Shown here in pieces: positions 17,588 to 60,807 of a stretch of DNA of 64,000 bases. The notes beneath the pieces were generated by a model. It made no database searches. It saw nothing but the letters and a program-made list of their open reading frames with translations, and had not been told where the DNA came from. Location: assembly GCA_963664365.1 (NCBI GenBank), contig OY761144.1, forward strand, positions 318,424-382,423, read 5' to 3'. A program made the translations under genes and the position numbers. Positions within the stretch are counted from its first letter, which is position 1. Each line of letters opens with the position of its first letter. The stretch is from Dehalococcoidia bacterium. Lineage in GTDB: Bacteria; Chloroflexota; Dehalococcoidia; Lucifugimonadales; UBA1123.

Positions 17588-17663
17588 AGACCATTCCACA
17601 ACCGCCATTCCAAGCGCACCCACCTGTCACTACCATGAAAATAGCAACCATGCCCACCCAACC

Positions 17664-17690
17664 GTCATTCCGGCGAAGGCCGGAATCCAG
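17664..17690. repeat. REP-like palindrome family C
   Basis: GTCATTCCGGCGAAGGCCGGAATCCAG between convergent genes, followed by a partial family-A tail. Confidence 0.7.
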
Positions 17691-17727
17691 AGGGGAAGGG
17701 TGCGGGGCGAGGGTGAAAACCCGCCCA

Positions 17728-18724: not shown

Positions 18725-18949
18725 TCACAAACCCTGCCATTCATCGCGAGTCAATTGAGCCTGACGCATGATGCTGCGCTGGGTGCCGACGGATACCTCT
18801 CTGTGACGAGGCACGATGGCTACAAGGGTTCTCTCATCAGTTTGTTTGGTAAACTTGACGTGGCTCCCCTGTTGACTGACTGCGATGAATCCCGCTGCCA
18901 ACAGCTTGCGTACAACACGCCGATATGGGAGTGGTCTAACCGGCGGCAA
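18725..18949 (-). CDS. hicA: HicA-family toxin
   Basis: GF...QQGSHVKF...VPRH, GT..SI.RQA. Confidence 0.88.
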   Translation of the reverse strand: MPPVRPLPYRRVVRKLLAAGFIAVSQQGSHVKFTKQTDERTLVAIVPRHREVSVGTQRSIMRQAQLTRDEWQGL

Positions 18950-19142
18950 TCTCTATATTCAGGTGGTGGAGTTGTGGAGTAGGTTCGGGCCTAGGCGGCG
19001 CGAAGTATAATTCGAGCGCCTCTCGCAGATTGGCTAGAGCGTCATCTACAGACTCCCCCTGGCTGGCTATGTCCACGTCCAGGGCTTGAGCCACGTACCA
19101 GTTGCCTTCACGCCATACGCTGGCGGTTATCGTTCGCTCCAT
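18936..19142 (-). CDS. hicB: HicB-family antitoxin (short form)
   Basis: YVAQ...ASQGESVDDALANLREALELY. Confidence 0.88.
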   Translation of the reverse strand: MERTITASVWREGNWYVAQALDVDIASQGESVDDALANLREALELYFAPPRPEPTPQLHHLNIEIAAG

Positions 19143-19270
19143 TTGTTCACCCGTCCTAGCGATTTCATTTCACAGCCCGACGTATGCGATTCTCCACCAA
19201 TTCTACCACACCCTCATGCCCGCGTTCCGTTCCCCAATAGTCAGGACCAGCGCGTTGAGCGCAGCATCGT

Positions 19271-19380
19271 CCAATCTCACACATCGTAGCACAGGCTACA
19301 CGTTCGGCAGAAACAGGGTAGAGGACGTTCACATAGTCAGCGACTCATCGCGCAACAGCGCGACGAACCCCGTCTGCTCT
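19271..19380 (-). repeat. TA-array junction repeat (vapC 3' end plus promoter block), copy upstream of hicBA
   Basis: ccaatctcacacatcgtagcacagg...gaggacgttcaca..gtcagcgactcatcgcgca matches 24775-24870 and 25586-25690. Confidence 0.85.
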
Positions 19381-19613
19381 ACCACATCCACATCAGGGTT
19401 CGTTCTGATTGCGGACACGCCGTCATAAGCGAGTCTGCGCTTATATTCGCCCAGCCCGCTCATATGGTTGAGCGCTTCAACGAGCGTCATGTCAGTCGTG
19501 ACTATCCGATGCTGTCCAAGGCATGAAACTATGTGCCGAGCCGTCGCGTGCAATTGGTCATCCTCATCAAGCGCGGCTATCCAGTATCCGGCGTCAGCGA
19601 AAAGAGTCTTCAC
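19329..19613 (-). pseudogene. vapC: VapC/PIN toxin with internal in-frame deletion (cassette 4)
   Basis: FADAGYWIA and VEALN are present, but VVEQT joins directly to GFVALL; the SLTDC segment is missing. Confidence 0.8.
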
Positions 19614-19615
19614 CG

Positions 19616-19927
19616 CTACTCTTCTTTCGGATGCCCGTAGAGGTAGTGCTTATAGTTCTTTGCGCCGTCTGTCGGACCATGTTCCTTGGGGATGTGAGAC
19701 AGCGACTTGCGTATGTTGTCGAACATATCATTGATCGAATGAGTATTGGGATTATCAGACCCTTTTCCGCCGCCGGAAGCCGACATCCTCGTCTTGGGAC
19801 GGTCCTCGTCGGAAAGTTGAGTCTGAGGCTTGATGGACACCGTCACCTCCTCACCCTCCTCCAGGTCCAGCGGTTCCAACGGCGTCAGCGCCCCATTCGA
19901 GAATCTGGCTTTCACGTTTGCAATCAT
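19616..19927 (-). CDS. AF2212/DUF104-like antitoxin (cassette 4)
   Basis: MIANVKARFSNGALTPLEPLDLEEGEEV...PTDGAKNYKHYLYGHPKE. Confidence 0.8.
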   Translation of the reverse strand: MIANVKARFSNGALTPLEPLDLEEGEEVTVSIKPQTQLSDEDRPKTRMSASGGGKGSDNPNTHSINDMFDNIRKSLSHIPKEHGPTDGAKNYKHYLYGHPKEE

Positions 19928-19992
19928 CCCGATTCCTCCCAGCGAGGTTTTGCATTTCGTGCGTGTCCTCACCCAATTCTGCTTTTACGGAT

Positions 19993-20343
19993 TTAGTGGA
20001 TTGTTGCGATCTCGTAGGTCATGCCGCGCCGACGGCACCACTCTCTCGCCGCACTTTCCTTGCGAGTCACGGCCGACGAGTCCATCAACGCTGGATTCTT
20101 AACCTCGATCAGCGCCTTGCGACCGTCGGCGTATTCCACTAGGAAATCGGGCCGATAGTTGCACTTTCGCCCCCTGGTGTCGATCCACGGAATCGAAATT
20201 CCGTGCCGTTTCTGCCACTTGGCGACCTCGGCGTCATTCTCGAGTCTCAGCATCATCTTTCGTTCGAGGTCGGAGTCGTAATTCTCAAAACTGAACGGGC
20301 TTTTACCCGGGCTCTCATACCTGCCCCGTTTACTTATCGCCAT
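19993..20343 (-). CDS. TnsA N-terminal-like PD-(D/E)xK endonuclease
   Basis: YDSDLE, YRPDFLVEY, LIEVK; overlaps the res 3' end by 14 nt. Confidence 0.8.
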   Translation of the reverse strand: MAISKRGRYESPGKSPFSFENYDSDLERKMMLRLENDAEVAKWQKRHGISIPWIDTRGRKCNYRPDFLVEYADGRKALIEVKNPALMDSSAVTRKESAAREWCRRRGMTYEIATIH

Positions 20344-22339
20344 ACTTCACCATCCCTTCGATCAGGCCAGGGACGGCCTTTATCTTCTCCTCTACCTGCG
20401 GCAGCATTCGCCGCGTAGCTTCCAGGCGATACCTTTCGGCGAGTCCAAGTGACGAACCGTCAAGGAACTTTAGCCTGATGTGCCCCAGCAAGATGCCATA
20501 TATTCGACCCTTGAACTGCGAAGAGTGTCCGGCATGTTCCAGCAGTCCCTCCGCCATGCCGAGCAGTTCCTGCTTGATGCCCTCCGCCAATTGTTCCGAG
20601 TCGAGGTCAACATCTGACCCGGCTTCGTAAGTAGGTTCCTCTTCCCGAATCGTCCAGCCCTCCGAGGTAAGCTCCGTGCTCTCGACGCCTGAAATCTCCT
20701 GGTCGGTAATTGTCACAGTCTCGGTCGGATAGGCCAACCCCTCCAGTACTTCACGCCAGTTTTTCAACGGATCGGCTGGCTGATCAGGTAGATCGAGAAT
20801 GAACTCTTCAAAATCATCTTCGGACGGCTCAGGAACGTCGATCAGGTTCTCCGGGTTGACCAGTTCTTGGCGGGGTGGGGGCTCGGGTAGGTCCTCCTCC
20901 TCGTCGTATTCGTCATCTACGCCGACACCCGTACGGACTTTGCTCGTAAATATATCCCACAGCCACTGATGGTCCAGCTTGGGATGGTCCACCACCGCGC
21001 ATATCTGAGGCTCTTCCTCGGTGACTCCACCACTTCTTACACGACGCAGGCCGCGCCCAACAACCTGCTGGCCGTAAACCCGACTTCCGAACTTGCGCAG
21101 GAGTAGTATTGTGCCCACCTCTGGTACGTCCCATCCTTCTCTAAGCATCAGCACACTCACCACCGCTTCATACGGTTTACCGCTGCGGCGGGCTTTGCCC
21201 AGTTCCGTCGCCTTCCTGCGGTCTTCGACAGGACTGTCTTCGGTGACCAGCAGAGTTTTAACCTTGAAGTAGTTGCTGAGCGTCCGCTCTGCCTTCTGAG
21301 CATCCAGTTTGCACACGGCAACCACGAATAGTATCGGCTGGTAGCGGCTCTTGGCGCGCCGTTTCTGCTCGGCTAGCCGTTGGAGGGCGATGGCCATCTG
21401 CTGCTGCATAGGCTTATCGTCCGTAACCCACTGCGTCGCGTTCAACCCAAGCCGATCAATCTCATCCCAGTCGATCTCTTCGACACTACGCGTCTCCCCC
21501 GTTTGGGCGTCGGTATAGGTAAGCTCCACGGTTTCTATATTGGGCTGATATACAACCGGCGTCTTGACGAGTCTATCTGCAAGCGCGTCTTGAATCAGAT
21601 ACTCGTAAATCATGCTGCTATCAGGAGATTTGCCGTCCGCGCGGTCAGGTGTCGCCGTGGTGTCGACGCGCAGAATGGTCTTGGGCCGCATCTTTTCAAG
21701 TGCTGCGTCCCACTCCGGCGCAGGCGAGTTGTGCGCCTCGTCATTGAACAGAGCGAACGATCGGCCGTTCATCAGGCCCGATAAGTTGCTCAGACCGCTG
21801 GCGTTGCTGACATAGAACTGGTGGATGTTGCCCAGAACAAGATTGGCCCCCAGCATATCGGCCCAACCGCCGGCCCGGTCACTGCCCAAGGTGGTCAGCG
21901 CAAAGTCATCCTTGCTTACAATGGACCCCTTGGGGATCAGATCCCGGTCCTCGAACACCTTCCCGTTCTGGAAGTCTTCTTCTAGCCGGTCGCGCACGAT
22001 TAGGTTCGGACAGAGCATAACGAATTTCTGCACGTCGTGAGCTATGCGCAGCCATGCGATCAGAGCTGCGATAATGGCGGTCTTGCCCCCGCCTGTCACC
22101 ACGTTCAGCAGAACGCCGTTGGGCAGCGCGAGCGCGTTACGCTCTATCTCAAAAGAGTAGATGACACGAAGAAAGCTATCCCACTGGTGAGGCCACAGAG
22201 TTCCCACACGCGGTTTTGTGTCGTCTTCCGGATCGCTTAGGTGCCGTATGTAGTCTAGGGTCTCAGGCTTGGCGTCAGGGTAGCCGCCCTTGACCCACTG
22301 CTGGAACTCGTCTTCATATCGGCTGAACTCGTTGAACAT
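20330..22339 (-). CDS. Type III restriction Res-like SF2 helicase/ATPase
   Basis: TGGGKT, DEAH, TATP, MLREGWDV, QVVGRGLR. Confidence 0.88.
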   Translation of the reverse strand: MFNEFSRYEDEFQQWVKGGYPDAKPETLDYIRHLSDPEDDTKPRVGTLWPHQWDSFLRVIYSFEIERNALALPNGVLLNVVTGGGKTAIIAALIAWLRIAHDVQKFVMLCPNLIVRDRLEEDFQNGKVFEDRDLIPKGSIVSKDDFALTTLGSDRAGGWADMLGANLVLGNIHQFYVSNASGLSNLSGLMNGRSFALFNDEAHNSPAPEWDAALEKMRPKTILRVDTTATPDRADGKSPDSSMIYEYLIQDALADRLVKTPVVYQPNIETVELTYTDAQTGETRSVEEIDWDEIDRLGLNATQWVTDDKPMQQQMAIALQRLAEQKRRAKSRYQPILFVVAVCKLDAQKAERTLSNYFKVKTLLVTEDSPVEDRRKATELGKARRSGKPYEAVVSVLMLREGWDVPEVGTILLLRKFGSRVYGQQVVGRGLRRVRSGGVTEEEPQICAVVDHPKLDHQWLWDIFTSKVRTGVGVDDEYDEEEDLPEPPPRQELVNPENLIDVPEPSEDDFEEFILDLPDQPADPLKNWREVLEGLAYPTETVTITDQEISGVESTELTSEGWTIREEEPTYEAGSDVDLDSEQLAEGIKQELLGMAEGLLEHAGHSSQFKGRIYGILLGHIRLKFLDGSSLGLAERYRLEATRRMLPQVEEKIKAVPGLIEGMVKYGDK

Positions 22340-22342
22340 GAT

Positions 22343-24232
22343 CTATCGCACCTCAACCGTACAAACCTGCATACCCTCGCCGCCGCGGCTGTCCTGCACA
22401 CGGCAGGCGATAGAGAACTTACCCATGCGGGAGAACTTGTGGGTAATCTGGAGCTGAGGCCTCTTGTTGTTGCCGCTGCCTTTCTGGAACGAGTAGCCAG
22501 GTGTAGCGACAAAGCGCTTTCCATCGTGGTCGAGGTCCCACTGGACGTTGATTATCTCCGCGCCTGAGTTGACGACAACCGAGTCGCCGGCGTCTAGTGT
22601 GACGGAACGACTCCCAAGAGCGCGGTACGTGACCGACACTTCTGGCGGCTGTATGAACGTGAGAAACTCGCCGTAGTCGGCCCTGTCGGTCGAACGTCCG
22701 ACTATGTGCTCGCGGAAGTCGGATTCACCAATACGGATCTGTTTAAGACGCACAAAGTTGACATCGATGTGCTCGCGCTGTCTAAGTGTGTCGGCGGCTT
22801 GCCTTGCGTTTTGTCCGAAGCCCCAGGCCAGCATCACGCCGTCGCGCAGACTGGAGTCGCGGTACTCTACTGTGCGCCGTATCGCATTGGCGAAGTCCTG
22901 AACGTCACGGGCGGTGGCCTGCGAATCTAGACCGGGAGCTCCTACCCAAATAGGAAGCCGGTTTCGCCAGCCGTGAATGTAGGGACTGTCTCCATCATCC
23001 CCAATTCGGCTGGCCCCGTATGACCGCAGAACGAACTCCCTGAACTCCGTTGGTTGCATGTGCGACAATCGATTCGCTTCATATATTCCCCATTGCTCGA
23101 TAGTGAAGTCGGGTACAGCCGCTCCTTGCATGCTTCGCGTTACTGCCTGTTGCTTCAGACGCTCGGCCGTAACAGCAACAGCAACGCGAGACTGATCGCA
23201 ACCTATGAATCGCCTGCCAACTCCTGCACTGAAGTCAATAGCTGGGCGTCCTTTCTGCGTGCGTGTTGATCTAGCACCTAAAGCTGCAACCACAAAGCTC
23301 CCACCTCCCACGAAGAAATCTGCCACTAGATCGCCGGGGTCACTTGCTGCTTCGATTAACCGCTGAAGTAACTCTAGTGGCTTCTGAGTCGGATAACCAA
23401 TTCTTTCTACCTTCTCTGACGGCATGATCGGCTGGACTTCAAAATAATCCTCTGGATGCTTCCCTTTCTTATTGGGCCTATATGTGTCGTATGTTCCGGA
23501 TTGCCGGAACGCGCGAGCAGTATAGTTCAATCTTTCCACGGACTCATCAGAGTAGGGCACCCTTACGGCATCCAAGTTGAACTTGCATGTAGGTCCTTTC
23601 TTGTACCAAAAGATAATGTCATGCTTCCTCGCGAACCGATCCTTTGGCACTCCGCCGCCGCGGTAACACCACACGAGTTCATTCAAGAAGTTTTGATACC
23701 CGAATATCTTGTCCATCTCCACCTTGATGTAATGGCTAGCGTGCCAGTCGCAGTGGACGTAGATGGAGCCGGTGGGCTTGAGGAGACGCTTCATCTCGTA
23801 GAGGCGCGCATTCAGCCAGATAAGGTAGCCCGGCATGCCGTCTTCCCATATGTCGCCGAAAGAGCGCAGTTCGTTGGCATCACCCCATATCACGTTGTAT
23901 TGCTTTCCCGAGAAGAAGGGAGGATCGATGTAGATCAGGTCGATGCTATTGGGTGGAAGCTGACGCATGACGTGCAGGTTGTCGCCCCAGATCAGGCGGT
24001 TCGGCTCGTGATCTTCCGAGTTGCCCATGGGCACACGCTCGATAATCTGTGTCGGCAGATCGACCCGGGGATAGTGCTTGCAAAACTCCTGTCGCCGGTC
24101 CCAGCCCAGCGGCTCGGCCTCTACCGGGATCGACCCGAACCGCGCCGGCGGACGCCAGAACTCTTCCTGCTGCGGCAAGGGCTCATGGACTTCTACGTCG
24201 TCAGGATTTGCGTTGGTGACGAATTCTTGCAC
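22343..24232 (-). CDS. N6/N4 DNA methyltransferase (Mod-like, beta class) with C-terminal extra domains
   Basis: GDNL, IYIDPPF, YPTQKP, DFFVGGGS. Confidence 0.9.
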   Translation of the reverse strand: MQEFVTNANPDDVEVHEPLPQQEEFWRPPARFGSIPVEAEPLGWDRRQEFCKHYPRVDLPTQIIERVPMGNSEDHEPNRLIWGDNLHVMRQLPPNSIDLIYIDPPFFSGKQYNVIWGDANELRSFGDIWEDGMPGYLIWLNARLYEMKRLLKPTGSIYVHCDWHASHYIKVEMDKIFGYQNFLNELVWCYRGGGVPKDRFARKHDIIFWYKKGPTCKFNLDAVRVPYSDESVERLNYTARAFRQSGTYDTYRPNKKGKHPEDYFEVQPIMPSEKVERIGYPTQKPLELLQRLIEAASDPGDLVADFFVGGGSFVVAALGARSTRTQKGRPAIDFSAGVGRRFIGCDQSRVAVAVTAERLKQQAVTRSMQGAAVPDFTIEQWGIYEANRLSHMQPTEFREFVLRSYGASRIGDDGDSPYIHGWRNRLPIWVGAPGLDSQATARDVQDFANAIRRTVEYRDSSLRDGVMLAWGFGQNARQAADTLRQREHIDVNFVRLKQIRIGESDFREHIVGRSTDRADYGEFLTFIQPPEVSVTYRALGSRSVTLDAGDSVVVNSGAEIINVQWDLDHDGKRFVATPGYSFQKGSGNNKRPQLQITHKFSRMGKFSIACRVQDSRGGEGMQVCTVEVR

Positions 24233-24334: not shown

Positions 24335-24470
24335 TAGCACAGGCCCGCGCGTTCAGCGGAGACGGCGTAGAGGTCGTTCACGGGGTCAGCGACTCATCGC
24401 GCAGAAGCGCGACGAACCCCGCCTGCTCGAAATCGCGGTCATACGCCAGCGCTTCGGTTATGCCTCGTTC
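24335..24470 (-). repeat. TA-array junction repeat, copy upstream of the methyltransferase
   Basis: tagcacaggcc...gacggcgtagaggtcgttcac..ggtcagcgactcatcgcgcagaagcgcgacgaacccc. Confidence 0.85.
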
Positions 24471-24488
24471 TCCGAAGACCAACGCCAT
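24378..24488 (-). pseudogene. vapC: VapC remnant, 36 aa (cassette 3)
   Basis: MALVF fused directly to GERGITEALAYDRDFEQAGFVALL; TGATG coupling to its antitoxin is retained. Confidence 0.8.
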
Positions 24489-24742
24489 CAGTCTTCCTCT
24501 TTGGGATGACCATACAGGTAATGCTTGTGGTTCTTGGCCAAGTCCGTCGGGACATCCGCCCATTCTTCTGGTGGGATGTCTTTCTGTCGTTCCTTCACCA
24601 TTTCCACAATGGCGGCCAACCCTCGATTCGGCGCCGGCGTTGCCTCAACCGACACCATCACCTCGTCGCCCTCCTCCAGGTCCAGCGGTTCAAGTGGCAT
24701 CAGCGCCCCGTTGGAGAATCTGGCCTTCACGTTCGCGATCAT
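24488..24742 (-). CDS. AF2212/DUF104-like antitoxin (cassette 3)
   Basis: MIANVKARFSNGAL...KHYLYGHPKEED; GGAGG RBS. Confidence 0.85.
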   Translation of the reverse strand: MIANVKARFSNGALMPLEPLDLEEGDEVMVSVEATPAPNRGLAAIVEMVKERQKDIPPEEWADVPTDLAKNHKHYLYGHPKEED

Positions 24743-24965
24743 CCCAAGTCCTCCGGTTCCACACTCATACGAATCCAATCCCACACATCGTAGCACAGCC
24801 GATGCGCGGGCAGAGACGGCGTGGAGGACGTTCACATGGTCAGCGACTCATCGCGCAGAAGGGCGACGAACCCCGCTTGCTCAAAGTCCTGGTCATAGGC
24901 CAGCGCCTCGGTTATGCCCCGTTCTTCCATCAGCAGGAAACTCGCACAATCGGTGAGGCTCCACC
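24650..24965 (-). repeat. Near-identical junction repeat (about 315 bp), offset 811 bp from the next copy
   Basis: Matches about 25461-25776; vapC stops at 24832/25643 and antitoxin starts at 24742/25553 both differ by 811. Confidence 0.9.
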
Positions 24966-25260
24966 GCTGATCCAGCCGGAAAGTGTATCTCTGGACGGAT
25001 GCCACAAACTGGGTGCTAGTCTGGGGGACGACTTCCACGCTGTCATCATTCTGAATCCTCTTCACCGTATCAGAGGCGAGTCCGCGTCTGTGCGCTCCCG
25101 TTCGACACATAAAGTTGAGAAACTCGACAAGAACCATCTCGGTTGTAACTATCCGACAAGGACCTAGCCGTTCCGTAACCATGATTGCTTCCTCGTGGAA
25201 CTGATCATCAGGGTTCTGGACAGCTACCCAATATCCGGAGTCTGCGAAGACCTCTCTCAT
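24832..25260 (-). CDS. vapC: VapC/PIN toxin (cassette 2)
   Basis: VFADSGY, VEFLN, SLTDC, YDQDFEQAGF. Confidence 0.9.
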   Translation of the reverse strand: MREVFADSGYWVAVQNPDDQFHEEAIMVTERLGPCRIVTTEMVLVEFLNFMCRTGAHRRGLASDTVKRIQNDDSVEVVPQTSTQFVASVQRYTFRLDQRWSLTDCASFLLMEERGITEALAYDQDFEQAGFVALLRDESLTM

Positions 25261-25553
25261 CGGTCATCTTCCTTCGGCCACCCATACAGATAATGCTTTA
25301 GGTTCTTGGCGCCGTCGGCAGGAAGGTCGTCCCAACTAACCTTTGTCGCAGACTCACGAATCTCCCTGAGCAAATCCGAGATGGATGGAACTTCCGGAGC
25401 GGGAGAAAGCTTCCCTTCCGACTCCTGGGAAATTGTATCCAGTACGGGGCCGTCTTCAATCGACACCATCACCTCCTCGCCCTCCTCCAGGTCCAGCGGT
25501 TCAAGCGGCATCAGCGCCCCATTCGAAAATCTGGCCTTCACGTTCGCAATCAT
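25257..25553 (-). CDS. AF2212/DUF104-like antitoxin (cassette 2)
   Basis: Same conserved ends as the other copies; ATGA overlap with vapC. Confidence 0.85.
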   Translation of the reverse strand: MIANVKARFSNGALMPLEPLDLEEGEEVMVSIEDGPVLDTISQESEGKLSPAPEVPSISDLLREIRESATKVSWDDLPADGAKNLKHYLYGWPKEDDR

Positions 25554-25776
25554 CCCAAGTCCTCCGGTTCCACACTCATACGAATCCAATCTCACACATC
25601 GTAGCACAGTCGATGCGCGGGCAGAGACGGCGTGGAGGACGTTCACATGGTCAGCGACTCATCGCGCAGAAGCGCGACGAACCCCGCCTGCTCGAAATCG
25701 CGGTCATAGGCCAGCGCCTCAGTTATGCCCCGTTCTTCCATCAGCAGGAAACTAGCGCAGTCGGTGAGGCTCCAGC
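25461..25776 (-). repeat. Near-identical junction repeat, second copy
   Basis: Matches about 24650-24965. Confidence 0.9.
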
Positions 25777-26071
25777 GCTGATCGCCTCGGTCAGCGTAGC
25801 GTTCCACTGCGGCCCTGAACTGCCTGTCTGTCTGCGGGACGATTTCGACGTCGGGATTATCCTCTAACTCTCGAATCATCTGCACCGCAAGACTACGAAG
25901 GTGTTCGCCCCCTCGCGACACGTAGTTGAGCGCTTCGGTGACTACCATCTGACTTGTCGTGATCCTAAACGATCCCAACTCCGCAGCCACCTCACTCGCC
26001 CGTTCGTGAAGCGGGTCTCTGTCGTCCAAGTTCGCTATGAAGTATCCAGCGTCAGCGAAGACCATGGTCAT
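25643..26071 (-). CDS. vapC: VapC/PIN toxin (cassette 1)
   Basis: VFADAGY, TEALN, SLTDC, YDRDFEQAGF. Confidence 0.9.
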   Translation of the reverse strand: MTMVFADAGYFIANLDDRDPLHERASEVAAELGSFRITTSQMVVTEALNYVSRGGEHLRSLAVQMIRELEDNPDVEIVPQTDRQFRAAVERYADRGDQRWSLTDCASFLLMEERGITEALAYDRDFEQAGFVALLRDESLTM

Positions 26072-26343
26072 TAGTCTTCAACCTTTGGATGACCGTAAAG
26101 GTAATGCTTGTAGTTCTTGGCGCCATCCGTGGGCATATCGTCCCATGCCTCGGGCGGGACTGATTTGCGGAGCCTCTCAAACATCTCCAGAATGGACTCC
26201 TTCCTTTTGGCAGGCGGAGACGAGTCCCCTATAGACACCGTCACCTCTATAGACACCGTCACCTCCTCACCCTCCTCCAACTCCAGCGGTTCAAGCGGCA
26301 TCAGCGCCCCATTCGAAAATCTGGCCTTCACGTTCGCGATCAT
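26071..26343 (-). CDS. AF2212/DUF104-like antitoxin (cassette 1)
   Basis: Conserved ends; 18-bp internal duplication (EVTVSI x2). Confidence 0.85.
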   Translation of the reverse strand: MIANVKARFSNGALMPLEPLELEEGEEVTVSIEVTVSIGDSSPPAKRKESILEMFERLRKSVPPEAWDDMPTDGAKNYKHYLYGHPKVED

Positions 26344-26525
26344 CCCAAGTCCTCCCAGCGAGGTTTTGCATCTCGTGCGCTCTCGATATCACACATCGTA
26401 GCACACGCCGCATAGAAACTTGCGAGGATCACTAATCTACGATAGAATTAGTACAAATGCCCGTGCTGATGTGACGACTTGGGGCCGCTCCCTACCGGCT
26501 GCGGACTCAGGCAATTGGAGCGATT

Positions 26526-45609: not shown

Positions 45610-47550
45610 ATGAAGAGCTGCACAAGCCCATTAGCCCTTTGCTCGATCATACTGATTGCCATATTCGCCGGATGTTCCGACGATCCCGGTCAGCCCACCG
45701 AGTCGCCCCCTCCTATCAACACGAGTACACCTGCTGCTAACACACCTGCGCCGCTTGCCACAAACATACCGGCGCCGTCCGACAGACCCGCGCTCAACAT
45801 CCAGTTCATCGGGGCCGCCGACCTCTCAGACGAGAAGAAGTCGTCCCTCGCGGACCTCATCGAAAGCATCCAAGCAGGCGTCGTTCAAATCACCACGAGT
45901 AGCGGCAGCGCGTCGGGGTTCATTATTTCCACGGACGGACTGGTGATAACCAACGAGCACGTCGTATCCGGCGAGAGCGGCGTCGGCGTCTGGCTGACCA
46001 ACGGACGCCGCTACGACGCTGCCGTGCTGGACCAAGACTCGACCTCAGACCTAGCTCTGCTAAAGATTGACGGCGTGAGCTTGGATCCCATCGCGGTCGG
46101 AGATTCGGACCGCGTCCGCATGGGCGACGAGGTTCTAGCGCTCGGCTTCCCGATCGCGGACACGATCGGAACCAACCTGACCGTCACCCGGGGCATCATA
46201 TCCTCCACCAGAATTGAGAACGGTGTCCGGCTGCTCCAGACCGACGCGTCGCTGAATCCGGGCAACAGCGGCGGGCCGCTGGTCAACCTCGACGGCGAGG
46301 TGATCGGCGTCAACTCGTCCAGAATCGAAGAGACCGACAGTGGCAGGCCCGTGACCAACATCGGCTTTGCCGTCTCCGTATCCGAGCTTCAGCGTAGGCT
46401 GCCCACGCTGGGAGGCCAGATCGCAAGTCCTGACACGCCCACGCCTGAACCAACTACAATACCTACATCCGATCCCACCTGGACGCCAGCGCCTACCTGG
46501 ACGCCTGAACCCACATTCACGCCTGAGCCAACCTCCACACCCACACTGACGCCGACCCCGACGATAACACCCACGCCGACCCTCACGCCTACTCCAACGG
46601 CAACGTACACCCCAACAGCCACAGCGACCTTCACGCCCACTCCGACGCCGACAATCACACCCACGCCGACACCGACGTTCACTCCAACCCCAACACCCAC
46701 TCCGATACCGCCATTCGTAGCCGTGAGCGTTGGGGGCGGGTTCACATGCGGGCTGCGCTCGGATGGCGCCGTCGTCTGCCGTGGGGACGATAGCGACGGC
46801 CGGGCTTCTCCGCCGGAGGATGAGCGATTCACGTTTATTAGCAGCGGTTACGACCACACCTGCGCGTTGCGCGCAGACGGGGTCGCTGTGTGCTGGGGAA
46901 ACGACGACTCTGGACAGTCCTCTCCACCCGATGATCAGCGTTTCATATCTATTAGCAGCGGTTACGGCCGCACTTGCGGTTTGAGAGAGGATGGCGTTGC
47001 TGTCTGCTGGGGAGACTATCCATATACTTGGTACAACCGCGGGCAATCCTCACCAGCGGATCACGAACGTTTTATAGCCATTAGCAGTGGTCAGTTCTAT
47101 AACCCAGACTATCAGCTCAATGCTCAACACCACGCATGTGGGTTACGTAATGATGGCTACGTCGTCTGCTGGGGGTACAACGAGCATGGCCAGTCCTCAC
47201 CACCACAACATGGCAGCTTCACAGCCGTAAGCAGTGGCGGTTGGCATACCTGCGGTCTTCGTGATGACGGTACTGCTGTATGCTGGGGATACGATGTGGA
47301 TGGCCGAACCGATGAGCAGAAAAAAGAGCGTTTCATAGCGATTAGCAGCGGCAGTGACTACACCTTGGGATTGCGTGAAGATGGTAGAGTCGTCTACTGG
47401 GACGAGGACAGTTACTCTCAGGGGCCAGACGACGATCCCTCCACAGCCATAGCCGCTGGCTACAGTCACGCTTGCAGGCTAGTAGAGGATGGCGTTATCG
47501 TCTGTTGGGGCAACAATGACTACGGGCAGTCTTCACCGCCGTTGAGGTGA
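45610..47550 (+). CDS. Lipoprotein: trypsin-like (HtrA/S1C) protease, Pro/Thr linker and RCC1-like repeats
   Basis: FAGC lipobox; TNEHV, DLAL, GNSGGP triad; (TP)n; repeated HTCGLRxDGxxVCWG. Confidence 0.85.
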
Positions 47551-47783
47551 GGCTGAGCAACGTCGGATAGATTCGCCATCAAAGTTGGGGCCACTGCCAC
47601 ATCTCACATGACGTGGCGTACTATACCTAAAACAAGTGGTTAGTATCTGCACTACTTCTTGACATCATACCTACTATGATGTAATGTATTCATATCCTTT
47701 GACAGATTGAACAGCCTTGTGCCAGATACTAGTAGTGCTGATGCTTGACGTTCCGAACTGAACTATGAAATTGGGAGTAACCG

Positions 47784-48617
47784 ATGATATTTTCATGTTT
47801 TCCAGCAAGCAAAAAATGCGAATGGCGCGATCTCATAGGTTTTGTAAACCACTACAATAATATTTCCCAGAAAGCATATCGTAGGTCGAAGTGCCTTGAC
47901 GTAGAATTGAGAAATCAGAAAGAACCTGAGTTGTTATTGGAAGCACCTGGAGAGGTTCCTATAGTAATTGAACGCAAATCTGTTGTATGGCCATCGGAAT
48001 ATCTTTCAGACCATGCAAATGAGCACGATCTTTATCACACCTTTGTTGACAGGATTCGCTTACGCGGCAATCTGTTCTCAGATTCAGCATACCAACTGAC
48101 TGTGAATGCTGAATCTCTGAGAGGAAAAGGGAAGAGAGAAGTTAGAAACTTTGCGGAACAGATTGCCGACTTCGTTGTATCGGCCCAATTTTCTGTAAAA
48201 TCTCCAAACGGTATTTCCAATGAAGATCCAATACCGTGGCGGTTTCGCCACCTTTCCCTTCACGAGAGAGACGAAACCGTTCCTGATATTGGTATCGGCC
48301 TAGTAACACACGAAAAGCTAGAATCCTTTGAATCGTTTCAGGATCTTCACAGGATTACAATTGCGAAATCTGGATACAGCGATGAATTTAACCGCATAGT
48401 AAAAGCTGCCGCTGAAAAATTTACGAAATATTCCGATTGTGAAAGATTGCTCGTGGTTCAGTTCTTTGGAAATAGTTCGATCTATCTACAAGACGAAGAA
48501 ATCGTCGAAATAATAACGACGGCTCAGTTGCCGGATGCAATTGACCAAGTTTGGCTTGCCAGACAGGAATGGATCAGCGAATCTGACTATGAAATAGCTT
48601 GGGACCGCGTCCGGTAA
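47784..48617 (+). CDS. Hypothetical protein (low GC), possible PD-(D/E)xK-like nuclease
   Basis: 277-aa ORF in AT-rich DNA; PE...IERK motif. Confidence 0.55.
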   Translation: MIFSCFPASKKCEWRDLIGFVNHYNNISQKAYRRSKCLDVELRNQKEPELLLEAPGEVPIVIERKSVVWPSEYLSDHANEHDLYHTFVDRIRLRGNLFSDSAYQLTVNAESLRGKGKREVRNFAEQIADFVVSAQFSVKSPNGISNEDPIPWRFRHLSLHERDETVPDIGIGLVTHEKLESFESFQDLHRITIAKSGYSDEFNRIVKAAAEKFTKYSDCERLLVVQFFGNSSIYLQDEEIVEIITTAQLPDAIDQVWLARQEWISESDYEIAWDRVR

Positions 48618-48687
48618 CCGACTATTGGAAGATCAGATACCTTCCTGGCAACTGGAATAAAAGTGAACCTAAGTATGGGGAGAGGCT

Positions 48688-49056
48688 ATGTCCACAATGG
48701 AACCTAACGAAATTGCTAATAATGTTATCATCAAACCTAAGGAGGGAGCGAATTTGGATACTCTCTCGGCTGAAGTAGACAGTATCCTGAATAGCATCAA
48801 GGCAGAGTACCTTGGTCGACTTATAACCGCAGAACTTCGCAACGAGATTCGTGAAGAGATAGGTAATAGGGTTCGGATACTTCCCGGGGTCACTGAGGTC
48901 CTTGTTACAACTCCTATTTCCGGCAATCCTCCAATGATTCGAGAGACATTTGTTGCTGATATGAACAGGGGCACAATTACTAAGACCAACACGGAGATCA
49001 TTGAAGGTCGCCCTGTCCCTCGACCTCGTTGGACAGACAAGCCTGAAGACGATTAA
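48688..49056 (+). CDS. Hypothetical protein (low GC)
   Basis: GGAGAGG RBS before ATG; 122 aa. Confidence 0.55.
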   Translation: MSTMEPNEIANNVIIKPKEGANLDTLSAEVDSILNSIKAEYLGRLITAELRNEIREEIGNRVRILPGVTEVLVTTPISGNPPMIRETFVADMNRGTITKTNTEIIEGRPVPRPRWTDKPEDD

Positions 49057-51640: not shown

Positions 51641-51670
51641 ACGGGGTAGGTCAGCAAAGACCTACCCCGT
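51641..51670. terminator. Perfect 12-bp hairpin between convergent genes
   Basis: ACGGGGTAGGTC-agcaaa-GACCTACCCCGT. Confidence 0.65.
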
Positions 51671-60728: not shown

Positions 60729-60807
60729 CCAAATCCACCACCACGTCCGTAGGGGCGGTTCGCGAACCGCCCCTACGGACATCCGGCGACTTGGTGGTGG
60801 ATTTTGG
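60729..60807. mobile_element. MITE-like element with TIRs around a GTAG REP hairpin
   Basis: CCAAATCCACCACCA ... TGGTGGTGGATTTTGG enclosing CCGTAGGGGCGGTTCGCGAACCGCCCCTACGG. Confidence 0.6.

Follow-up and report, generated by a model that had tools for sequence, protein, structure and literature searches.

We found that a 64,000-nt stretch of genomic DNA from a Dehalococcoidia bacterium (contig OY761144.1; hereafter, the window) carries a real, intact and conserved cassette of three genes on the minus strand, in the order methyltransferase, helicase, nuclease. We consider it probable that the cassette forms a restriction-modification system of a Type III-like kind, with a nuclease that is predicted to dock on the linker of the helicase, thereby rebuilding a two-chain Res. 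Gene order, the split and its conservation, intact catalytic motifs, selection on the genes and a shuffled recognition region were all observed directly. Judged from its sequence, the cassette is likely a DNA-cutting defense system conserved across many bacterial groups. Since its nuclease is encoded by a separate gene and not within a single-chain Res, we file the cassette as Type III-like rather than canonical.

Anatomy of the cassette

In window coordinates, the cassette comprises the following features:

22343..24232, minus strand: Mod-like beta-class N6-adenine methyltransferase, 629 aa (Pfam N6_N4_Mtase, 6.6e-42; PADLOC)
23402..23671, minus strand: Mod hypervariable target-recognition region, ~residues 188-277 (column conservation, allele count)
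22673..23110, minus strand: Mod C-terminal alpha/beta domain, ~residues 375-520, likely helicase-binding (model topology)
20330..22339, minus strand: Res-like SF2 helicase/ATPase without a nuclease domain, 669 aa (Pfam ResIII, 3.3e-16)
20822..20875, minus strand: predicted nuclease-docking peptide, helicase residues 489-506 (complex model, conservation)
20330..20343, minus strand: helicase/nuclease gene overlap of 14 nt, with the nuclease ATG within the final helicase codons
19993..20343, minus strand: stand-alone PD-(D/E)xK nuclease, 116 aa, E27/D66/E80/K82 (Pfam, PADLOC and NF046055 matches)

The end of the methyltransferase gene and the start of the helicase gene are separated by 3 nt, and the nuclease ORF lies in the +1 frame relative to the helicase. 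The host genome, a 3.4-Mb single contig, holds a single copy each of helicase and nuclease, and the nearest relatives of the cassette belong to Dehalococcoidia. Surrounding the cassette (window 18725-19972 and 24356-26406) is an array that holds four AF2212-like antitoxin genes, whose PIN-domain partners comprise two intact genes and two apparent fragments; this flanking array contains repeats of 100-300 nt that are 60-94% alike, as well as a HicA gene pair. Elsewhere, the window showed a dispersed repeat at 17642-17722, with dozens of 83-97% matches across the relative G244, perfect palindromes at 60745-60780 (18-bp stem) and 51641-51670 (12-bp stem), and a low-GC stretch (0.44-0.49) at 47001-49000. 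Matches in a promoter scan were at chance level.

Conservation of the split

Among the best 80 of at least 157 confirmed genome loci, the nuclease was a separate gene in 79 and was fused in none, the contig of the 80th stopping 34 nt past the helicase. A mod sequence lay upstream of the helicase in 72 of the 80, and seven of the remaining eight had at most 740 nt of upstream sequence. The split and the three-gene order, whose conservation the original prediction had proposed to check, therefore recur in other genomes, and its reading of the locus as a three-component Mod/helicase/nuclease variant, against which it had itself named fused close homologs, is supported. The best 120 of 2096 helicase homologs were 562-678 aa long, though lengths of up to 1171 aa were searched. 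By record title, the genome loci came from Chloroflexota, Planctomycetota, Verrucomicrobiota, Bacteroidota, Proteobacteria and others. On viral contigs (28 loci in all), the six full-length relatives were all split, at 35-63% full-length identity, and the 22 distant loci comprised 19 fused proteins and three long proteins without a nuclease match. Annotated phages gave no match, and plasmids gave only partial matches of 22-26%. Eighty metagenome loci were chosen with a divergent alignment (at least two repeat genome loci), and 66 of these were split, down to ~31% identity. The other 14 consisted of eight that end too early, three fused outgroup proteins (25-28% identity), one deletion remnant, one truncated helicase and one intact helicase without a nuclease. 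Within the class, a nuclease profile matched 17 of 301 genomes (a tally that includes the unpublished G227) at E 1e-10, 13 of the 17 at 1e-47 or below; the distribution of the cassette in the class is patchy.

Two single loci depart from this pattern. At L126:2856-5965, an unrelated gene directly follows an intact helicase of the same sub-branch, where the nuclease would be expected, through loss or misassembly. L190, from a genome of the same order (G292), is a decaying copy, with a stop and a frameshift in mod, a stop in the nuclease and an open helicase frame.

The junction itself was inspected in 80 close sequences and in 66 loci of the wider family, and in neither set did another gene separate helicase from nuclease. 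The nuclease ATG occupied the overlap position in 80 of 80 close sequences, all of which keep the +1 frame with an overlap of 11 or 14 nt. Such constancy of frame would fit a programmed ribosomal frameshift, by which the two genes would really be one and yield an ordinary fused Res. However, the wider family uses all three junction frames (+1 in 44 loci, -1 in 19 and in-frame after the stop in three), which argues against a programmed frameshift. The ATG is also invariant, whereas the helicase residue encoded across it can be Y, H, D or N, and the nuclease frame is closed within six codons upstream in 70 of the 80 sequences, so that we regard a frameshift as very improbable. From its sequence, the 14-nt overlap likely reflects translational coupling.

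Short-read contigs from three of three public runs (one study, possibly the source) crossed the junction with identical letters and no gaps; therefore, the split is not an assembly error. Estimates of dN/dS were 0.05-0.11 for the helicase in six of seven pairs and 0.05-0.09 for the nuclease in five of seven, the other pairs being saturated. The split is natural, conserved and under purifying selection.

Identity of the nuclease

The 116-aa ORF overlapping the end of the helicase carries YRPDF...IEVK, as originally noted, and its residues E27, P65, D66, E80 and K82 were invariant in 70 of 70 nucleases. Its description as TnsA-like held for the Pfam label and the PD...ExK motif: Tn7_TnsA-like_N matched the window nuclease at E 2e-12 (47.9 bits; cut-off, 26.5), and a TnsA-like model was the best Pfam label in 70 of 70. 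As an account of origin, it did not hold. The nuclease ends two residues past the match to the TnsA N-terminal domain, with no C-terminal TnsA domain, and along its whole length it can be aligned with the nuclease domain at the C-terminus of fused Type III Res proteins, relatives at 25-28% identity; "TnsA-like" is therefore a Pfam label and not an origin. RE_endonuc, the Res endonuclease model, also matched 61 of the 70, and the window nuclease matched the C-terminal nuclease parts of PADLOC REase_III PDLC03648 (positions 740-826 of 871, E 1.6e-9) and of NF046055 (positions 849-940 of 970). On these alignments, the small nuclease is a Res tail made in trans, its domain coming from a Res endonuclease and not from a borrowed transposase subunit.

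The uniform TnsA-like label would also fit a sequencing artefact, a recent pseudogenization or a stray Tn7 TnsA gene. We give this explanation next to no credence, since reads match the junction, dN/dS is at most 0.11, most of the nucleases also match RE_endonuc, and no fourth gene family, transposition genes included, recurred beside the cassette in 80 loci; conservation of the cassette across phyla refutes it.

No solved structure matching the nuclease by sequence was found. Likewise, there were no longer fused nuclease homologs among 93 candidates, which is weak evidence by the search tool's own caution; profile searches did bring up distant relatives that are fused. An identity with HEC-02B was rejected, as the matches in 43 of 70 nucleases were weak (best, 5e-4); the HEC-02B system consists of an ABC ATPase and a NERD nuclease, as given in the accessible part of the preprint (bioRxiv 10.1101/2024.01.29.577857).

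Three of the 80 metagenome loci carried a second nuclease gene in tandem, encoding 179-183 aa and keeping the E/PD/ExK motifs intact (L124:2581-3132, L156:1727-2266 and L159:2031-2570). The products have a hydrophobic C-terminal stretch (Kyte-Doolittle 1.9-2.7), so the duplicated nuclease is possibly membrane-anchored.

The helicase as a motor without a nuclease

The 669-aa Res-like helicase had been described as ending in an acidic linker and helices without a nuclease, and the structural model agrees, with two RecA lobes, a beta-rich insertion (~262-306), an acidic linker and a four-helix domain (581-666) at a mean pLDDT of 76. Pfam ResIII was present in 70 of 70 helicases, and none of the 70 matched a Pfam nuclease family. 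The motifs Walker A GGGKT, DEAH, TAT, REGWD and QQxxGRGLR were invariant or nearly so among 70 homologs. NF046055 scored 74.1 bits against the helicase and 35.2 bits against the nuclease, both below its curated cut-off of 800. EcoP15I Res, from the nearest characterized Type III enzyme, matched the helicase by profile at E 6e-6, ranked behind the Type IV enzyme chain 7clg, and by fold it came ninth among generic SF2 proteins. The accessible text on EcoP15I Res gives it the same domain order as the window helicase, followed by the nuclease (PMC4490356).

We also considered that the helicase might be a processive translocase in the style of Type I, ISP or CglI enzymes, taking the nuclease along or activating it, either at a distance from a second site or without regard to one. 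There is precedent for ATP-dependent systems of three genes in which helicase and nuclease are separate, with heavy ATP hydrolysis (CglI/NgoAVII, as far as the accessible text of PMC4267653 goes), and the beta-rich insertion of the window helicase, at ~45 aa, falls short of the 77 aa reported for the Pin domain of EcoP15I in the part of PMC4490356 available. However, a single REase_III model, PDLC03648, was the best PADLOC match of the helicase (6.8e-14) and of the nuclease alike, and the methyltransferase is a beta-class enzyme with Mod-like domains, whereas CglI has a C5 methylase and a PLD nuclease. A translocase of this kind is thus unlikely in our judgment.

Predicted docking of the nuclease

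A complex model of helicase residues 470-669 with the nuclease scored 0.62, compared with 0.00 for the best of three controls. Among solved complexes 116 of 157 attain this mark, and among mismatched pairs 2 of 215; these counts are only approximate for the alignments used, and the halves of split genes pass the mark easily. The model runs shared at least 90% of contacts, with a partner pLDDT of at least 76. The predicted interface joins helicase residues 489-506 to nuclease residues 13-21, 42-49, 68-70 and 102-108, with the catalytic residues E27, D66, E80 and K82 outside it. Modeling the Res C-terminus with the nuclease, as the original prediction proposed, thus returned the expected docking (0.62 vs. 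0.00), but at a peptide of the acidic linker and not at the C-terminal helices.

Peptide residues Q491, P496, I500 and P503 were 91-100% conserved, and conservation at the interface was slightly raised (0.68 vs. 0.64 for the helicase tail; 0.80 vs. 0.74 for the nuclease); the peptide was unrecognizable in one sub-branch (P0137, P0149 and L087). With a loose pattern and no chance control, 27 of 36 fused relatives were found to have a similar motif equally far behind motif VI, so that the contact probably descends from one made within a single chain. The model supports docking of the nuclease on linker peptide 489-506 and suggests that the nuclease, originally inferred to be detachable, is a bound subunit.

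The nuclease could, on the other hand, be a released effector: Mod and the helicase would sense unmethylated DNA, and a free, non-specific nuclease would then shred DNA or kill the cell. The separate gene in every informative close relative is in keeping with such a role, as is the second nuclease copy of the metagenome loci, which shows the module to be redeployable. Since fused enzymes, in which release is impossible, have a peptide corresponding to the predicted docking site, and the start of the nuclease is coupled to the stop of the helicase, as fits a fixed subunit, we think release distinctly unlikely.

Origin of the two-chain form

Trees of the helicase core (drawn with midpoint rooting, as was the nuclease tree) placed the short helicases apart from fused proteins of 820-1150 aa (SH-aLRT 100), the split status of P0124-P0149 being taken from protein length and not from DNA. 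Two fused proteins, P0185 and P0190 (1006-1026 aa), fell inside the short-helicase group on a long branch; monophyly of the short helicases was not rejected (p-AU 0.32; 27 of 56 rows). In the nuclease tree, 20 stand-alone copies lay on one side of a branch (SH-aLRT 92), with P0185 and P0190 adjacent. A single fission is the simplest reading of these sequences, and P0185 and P0190 may represent either the ancestral state or a re-fusion. Fused relatives adjoin methyltransferases that match the same profile, often through to its C-terminal end.

Methyltransferase and specificity

The methyltransferase has DPPF at 103-106 and FxGGG at 307-311, with a variable region (188-277) between them. Over residues 61-473, PADLOC gave MTase_II (1.1e-51) and MTase_III (4.6e-50), and the best sequence matches of the catalytic core were Type II beta methyltransferases. 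Foldseek aligned EcoP15I Mod (4zcf_B) over 577 columns at an rmsd of 15. VIA gave Z 26-27 for 6k0w (rmsd 3.0, 280 aligned) and 4zcf (rmsd 5.5, 309 aligned), tied with Type II beta enzymes, and its alignment extended to residue 521 with Mbo45V (7dsu_B) alone. The tail is PKD/Ig-like (Pfam PKD, 8.4e-5, just under cut-off). For the Mod C-terminal domain, Atlas offered T3RM_EcoP15I_C at a score of 0.88, to be taken as a lead; by analogy with EcoP15I, as described in the accessible text of PMC4490356, this domain likely binds the helicase. A dead Mrr-type nuclease fold was also considered for the domain and was discarded, with no Pfam support in 46 members.

Column conservation was 0.25-0.57 in the recognition region and 0.88-0.92 in the catalytic core. 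The region varied from 65 to 131 aa in length and occurred as 34 alleles among 44 loci, and pairs with helicase cores 93-94% identical had recognition regions just 21-29% identical. Across 45 loci, identity correlated with that of the helicase core at rho 0.79 for the nuclease and 0.85 for the Mod C-terminus, with the helicase tail also within 0.79-0.85, and at -0.02 for the recognition region, these values coming from locus pairs that are not independent. Since the recognition region is shuffled independently of helicase and nuclease, the nuclease cannot track the site. A nuclease of Type II would need to evolve along with its site, which, by sequence identity, the nuclease of the cassette does not. 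Independent shuffling is as expected if Mod alone sets specificity. The window's own allele is common to L021, L042 and L045, and these three loci, together with L068 and L139, share with the window a 20-aa insertion after motif I (~318-338).

In at least ten genome loci, mod was interrupted by a stop or a frameshift, with the helicase and nuclease frames open, a count biased by the ranking of loci on helicase match and open to sequencing errors; a broken mod beside such frames would be tolerable if cutting depends on Mod. Seven loci (L033, L044, L045, L053, L060, L066 and L076) had one or two small genes inserted between mod and helicase, which we take to resemble toxin-antitoxin, HD-domain or GIY-YIG genes.

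Candidate mod switches, absent from the window copy, were seen in relatives. Four loci (L006:5113, L008:5112, L011:5119 and L192:4284, minus strand) had a TAG at the same mod codon, within the 3-base loop ATA of a hairpin with a perfect 14-20-bp stem, the arms of which differ between genomes. At L010:5115, a 14-bp stem encloses the reverse-complement loop TAT and the codon reads Met (ATG). The other 101 of 106 motif matches had stems of at most 6 bp at this site, and neither the helicase sequences (160 kb) nor the nuclease sequences (28 kb) contained a perfect stem of 11 bp or more. The hairpin looks like a candidate recombinase-free on/off switch that works by loop flip. Pyrrolysine read-through of the TAG was rejected, as no PylS scored above cut-off in five of five genomes. 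Tracts of C10-C13 were also found in mod (L013:4200, L014:4217, L030:4194, L036:4220, L067:4189 and L029:5285), five of them (C11-C13) just after the likely start codon; counted over the mod region, C tracts occurred in seven loci, compared with none in helicases. They are candidates for slipped-strand phase variation or for long-read error.

Proposed mechanism and significance

By analogy with EcoP15I and EcoP1I, a Mod dimer would read a short asymmetric site and methylate one adenine on host DNA. The helicase would bind Mod, and ATP hydrolysis at an unmethylated site would start sliding; two complexes from inverted sites would then meet, each nicking one strand. For the split form, we infer that coupled translation would supply about one nuclease per helicase and that free nuclease, for lack of a recognition domain, would be inactive before assembly.

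In the EcoP15I crystal structure, the nuclease domain is reportedly disordered. With a natural two-chain Res, how the motor switches on the nuclease becomes directly testable, as the nuclease could be added, withheld, labeled or swapped with the motor unchanged. Should the predicted docking prove correct, a family that naturally offers dozens of recognition alleles would recruit its 116-aa nuclease through a short peptide. The cassette is widespread, and tools that look for a single long Res gene probably call it too seldom. A broader and rather doubtful proposal is that it represents an undescribed, cross-phylum sub-type of ATP-dependent restriction, with a plug-in nuclease on a short docking peptide, assembly-gated cutting, an effector that may be exchanged, duplicated or tied to the membrane, and, in some lineages, a whole-system activity that is turned on and off when a 3-base hairpin loop in mod flips.

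Comparison with known systems

Type III systems are described as mod plus res, with no split form mentioned in the accessible portions of three articles (PMC3874151, PMC6158711 and PMC3424549), and no description of one was found in the literature searched, which covered main texts, few of them from subscription journals. The available text of PMC6158743 states that Type III cleavage requires two cooperating activated nucleases. The window cassette shares with EcoP15I/EcoP1I (Mod2Res1; PDB 4ZCF) the order of mod then res with a 3-nt gap, a beta-class adenine methyltransferase with its recognition region between motif blocks and an extra C-terminal Mod domain, an SF2 motor followed by a helical region, and a PD-(D/E)xK nuclease. 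However, its nuclease is on its own chain, its helicase is ~300 aa shorter, its Mod has a PKD-like tail and the similarity is remote.

Separation of methyltransferase, helicase and nuclease on three chains also occurs in CglI/NgoAVII, where, in the accessible part of PMC4267653, helicase and nuclease form a complex, the C5 methylase acts alone and the PLD nuclease cuts as R2N2; the window cassette has instead an N6 Mod-like enzyme and a bare PD-(D/E)xK domain. Tn7 TnsA (PF08722) shares the fold family and PD...ExK motif of the nuclease, but the nuclease lacks the C-terminal TnsA domain and has no conserved transposition genes beside it, and the neighbors of the cassette in the window are toxin-antitoxin pairs. 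MANTIS/Gao_RL (bioRxiv 10.64898/2026.09.23.753747, accessible part) likewise bases defense on methylation, has more than two components and uses a helicase-nuclease effector; it differs in having four genes, an AAA+ loader and a fused helicase-nuclease, MtsD. The nearest outgroup is formed by the fused Res proteins, 820-1150 aa, of the PDLC03648/NF046055 (BPTD_3080) neighborhood, a name for which we found no literature. They share the nuclease domain, a similar linker motif and a similar methyltransferase partner with the cassette, and differ from it in being single chains with ~25-35 extra residues past the nuclease core and 23-29% identity.
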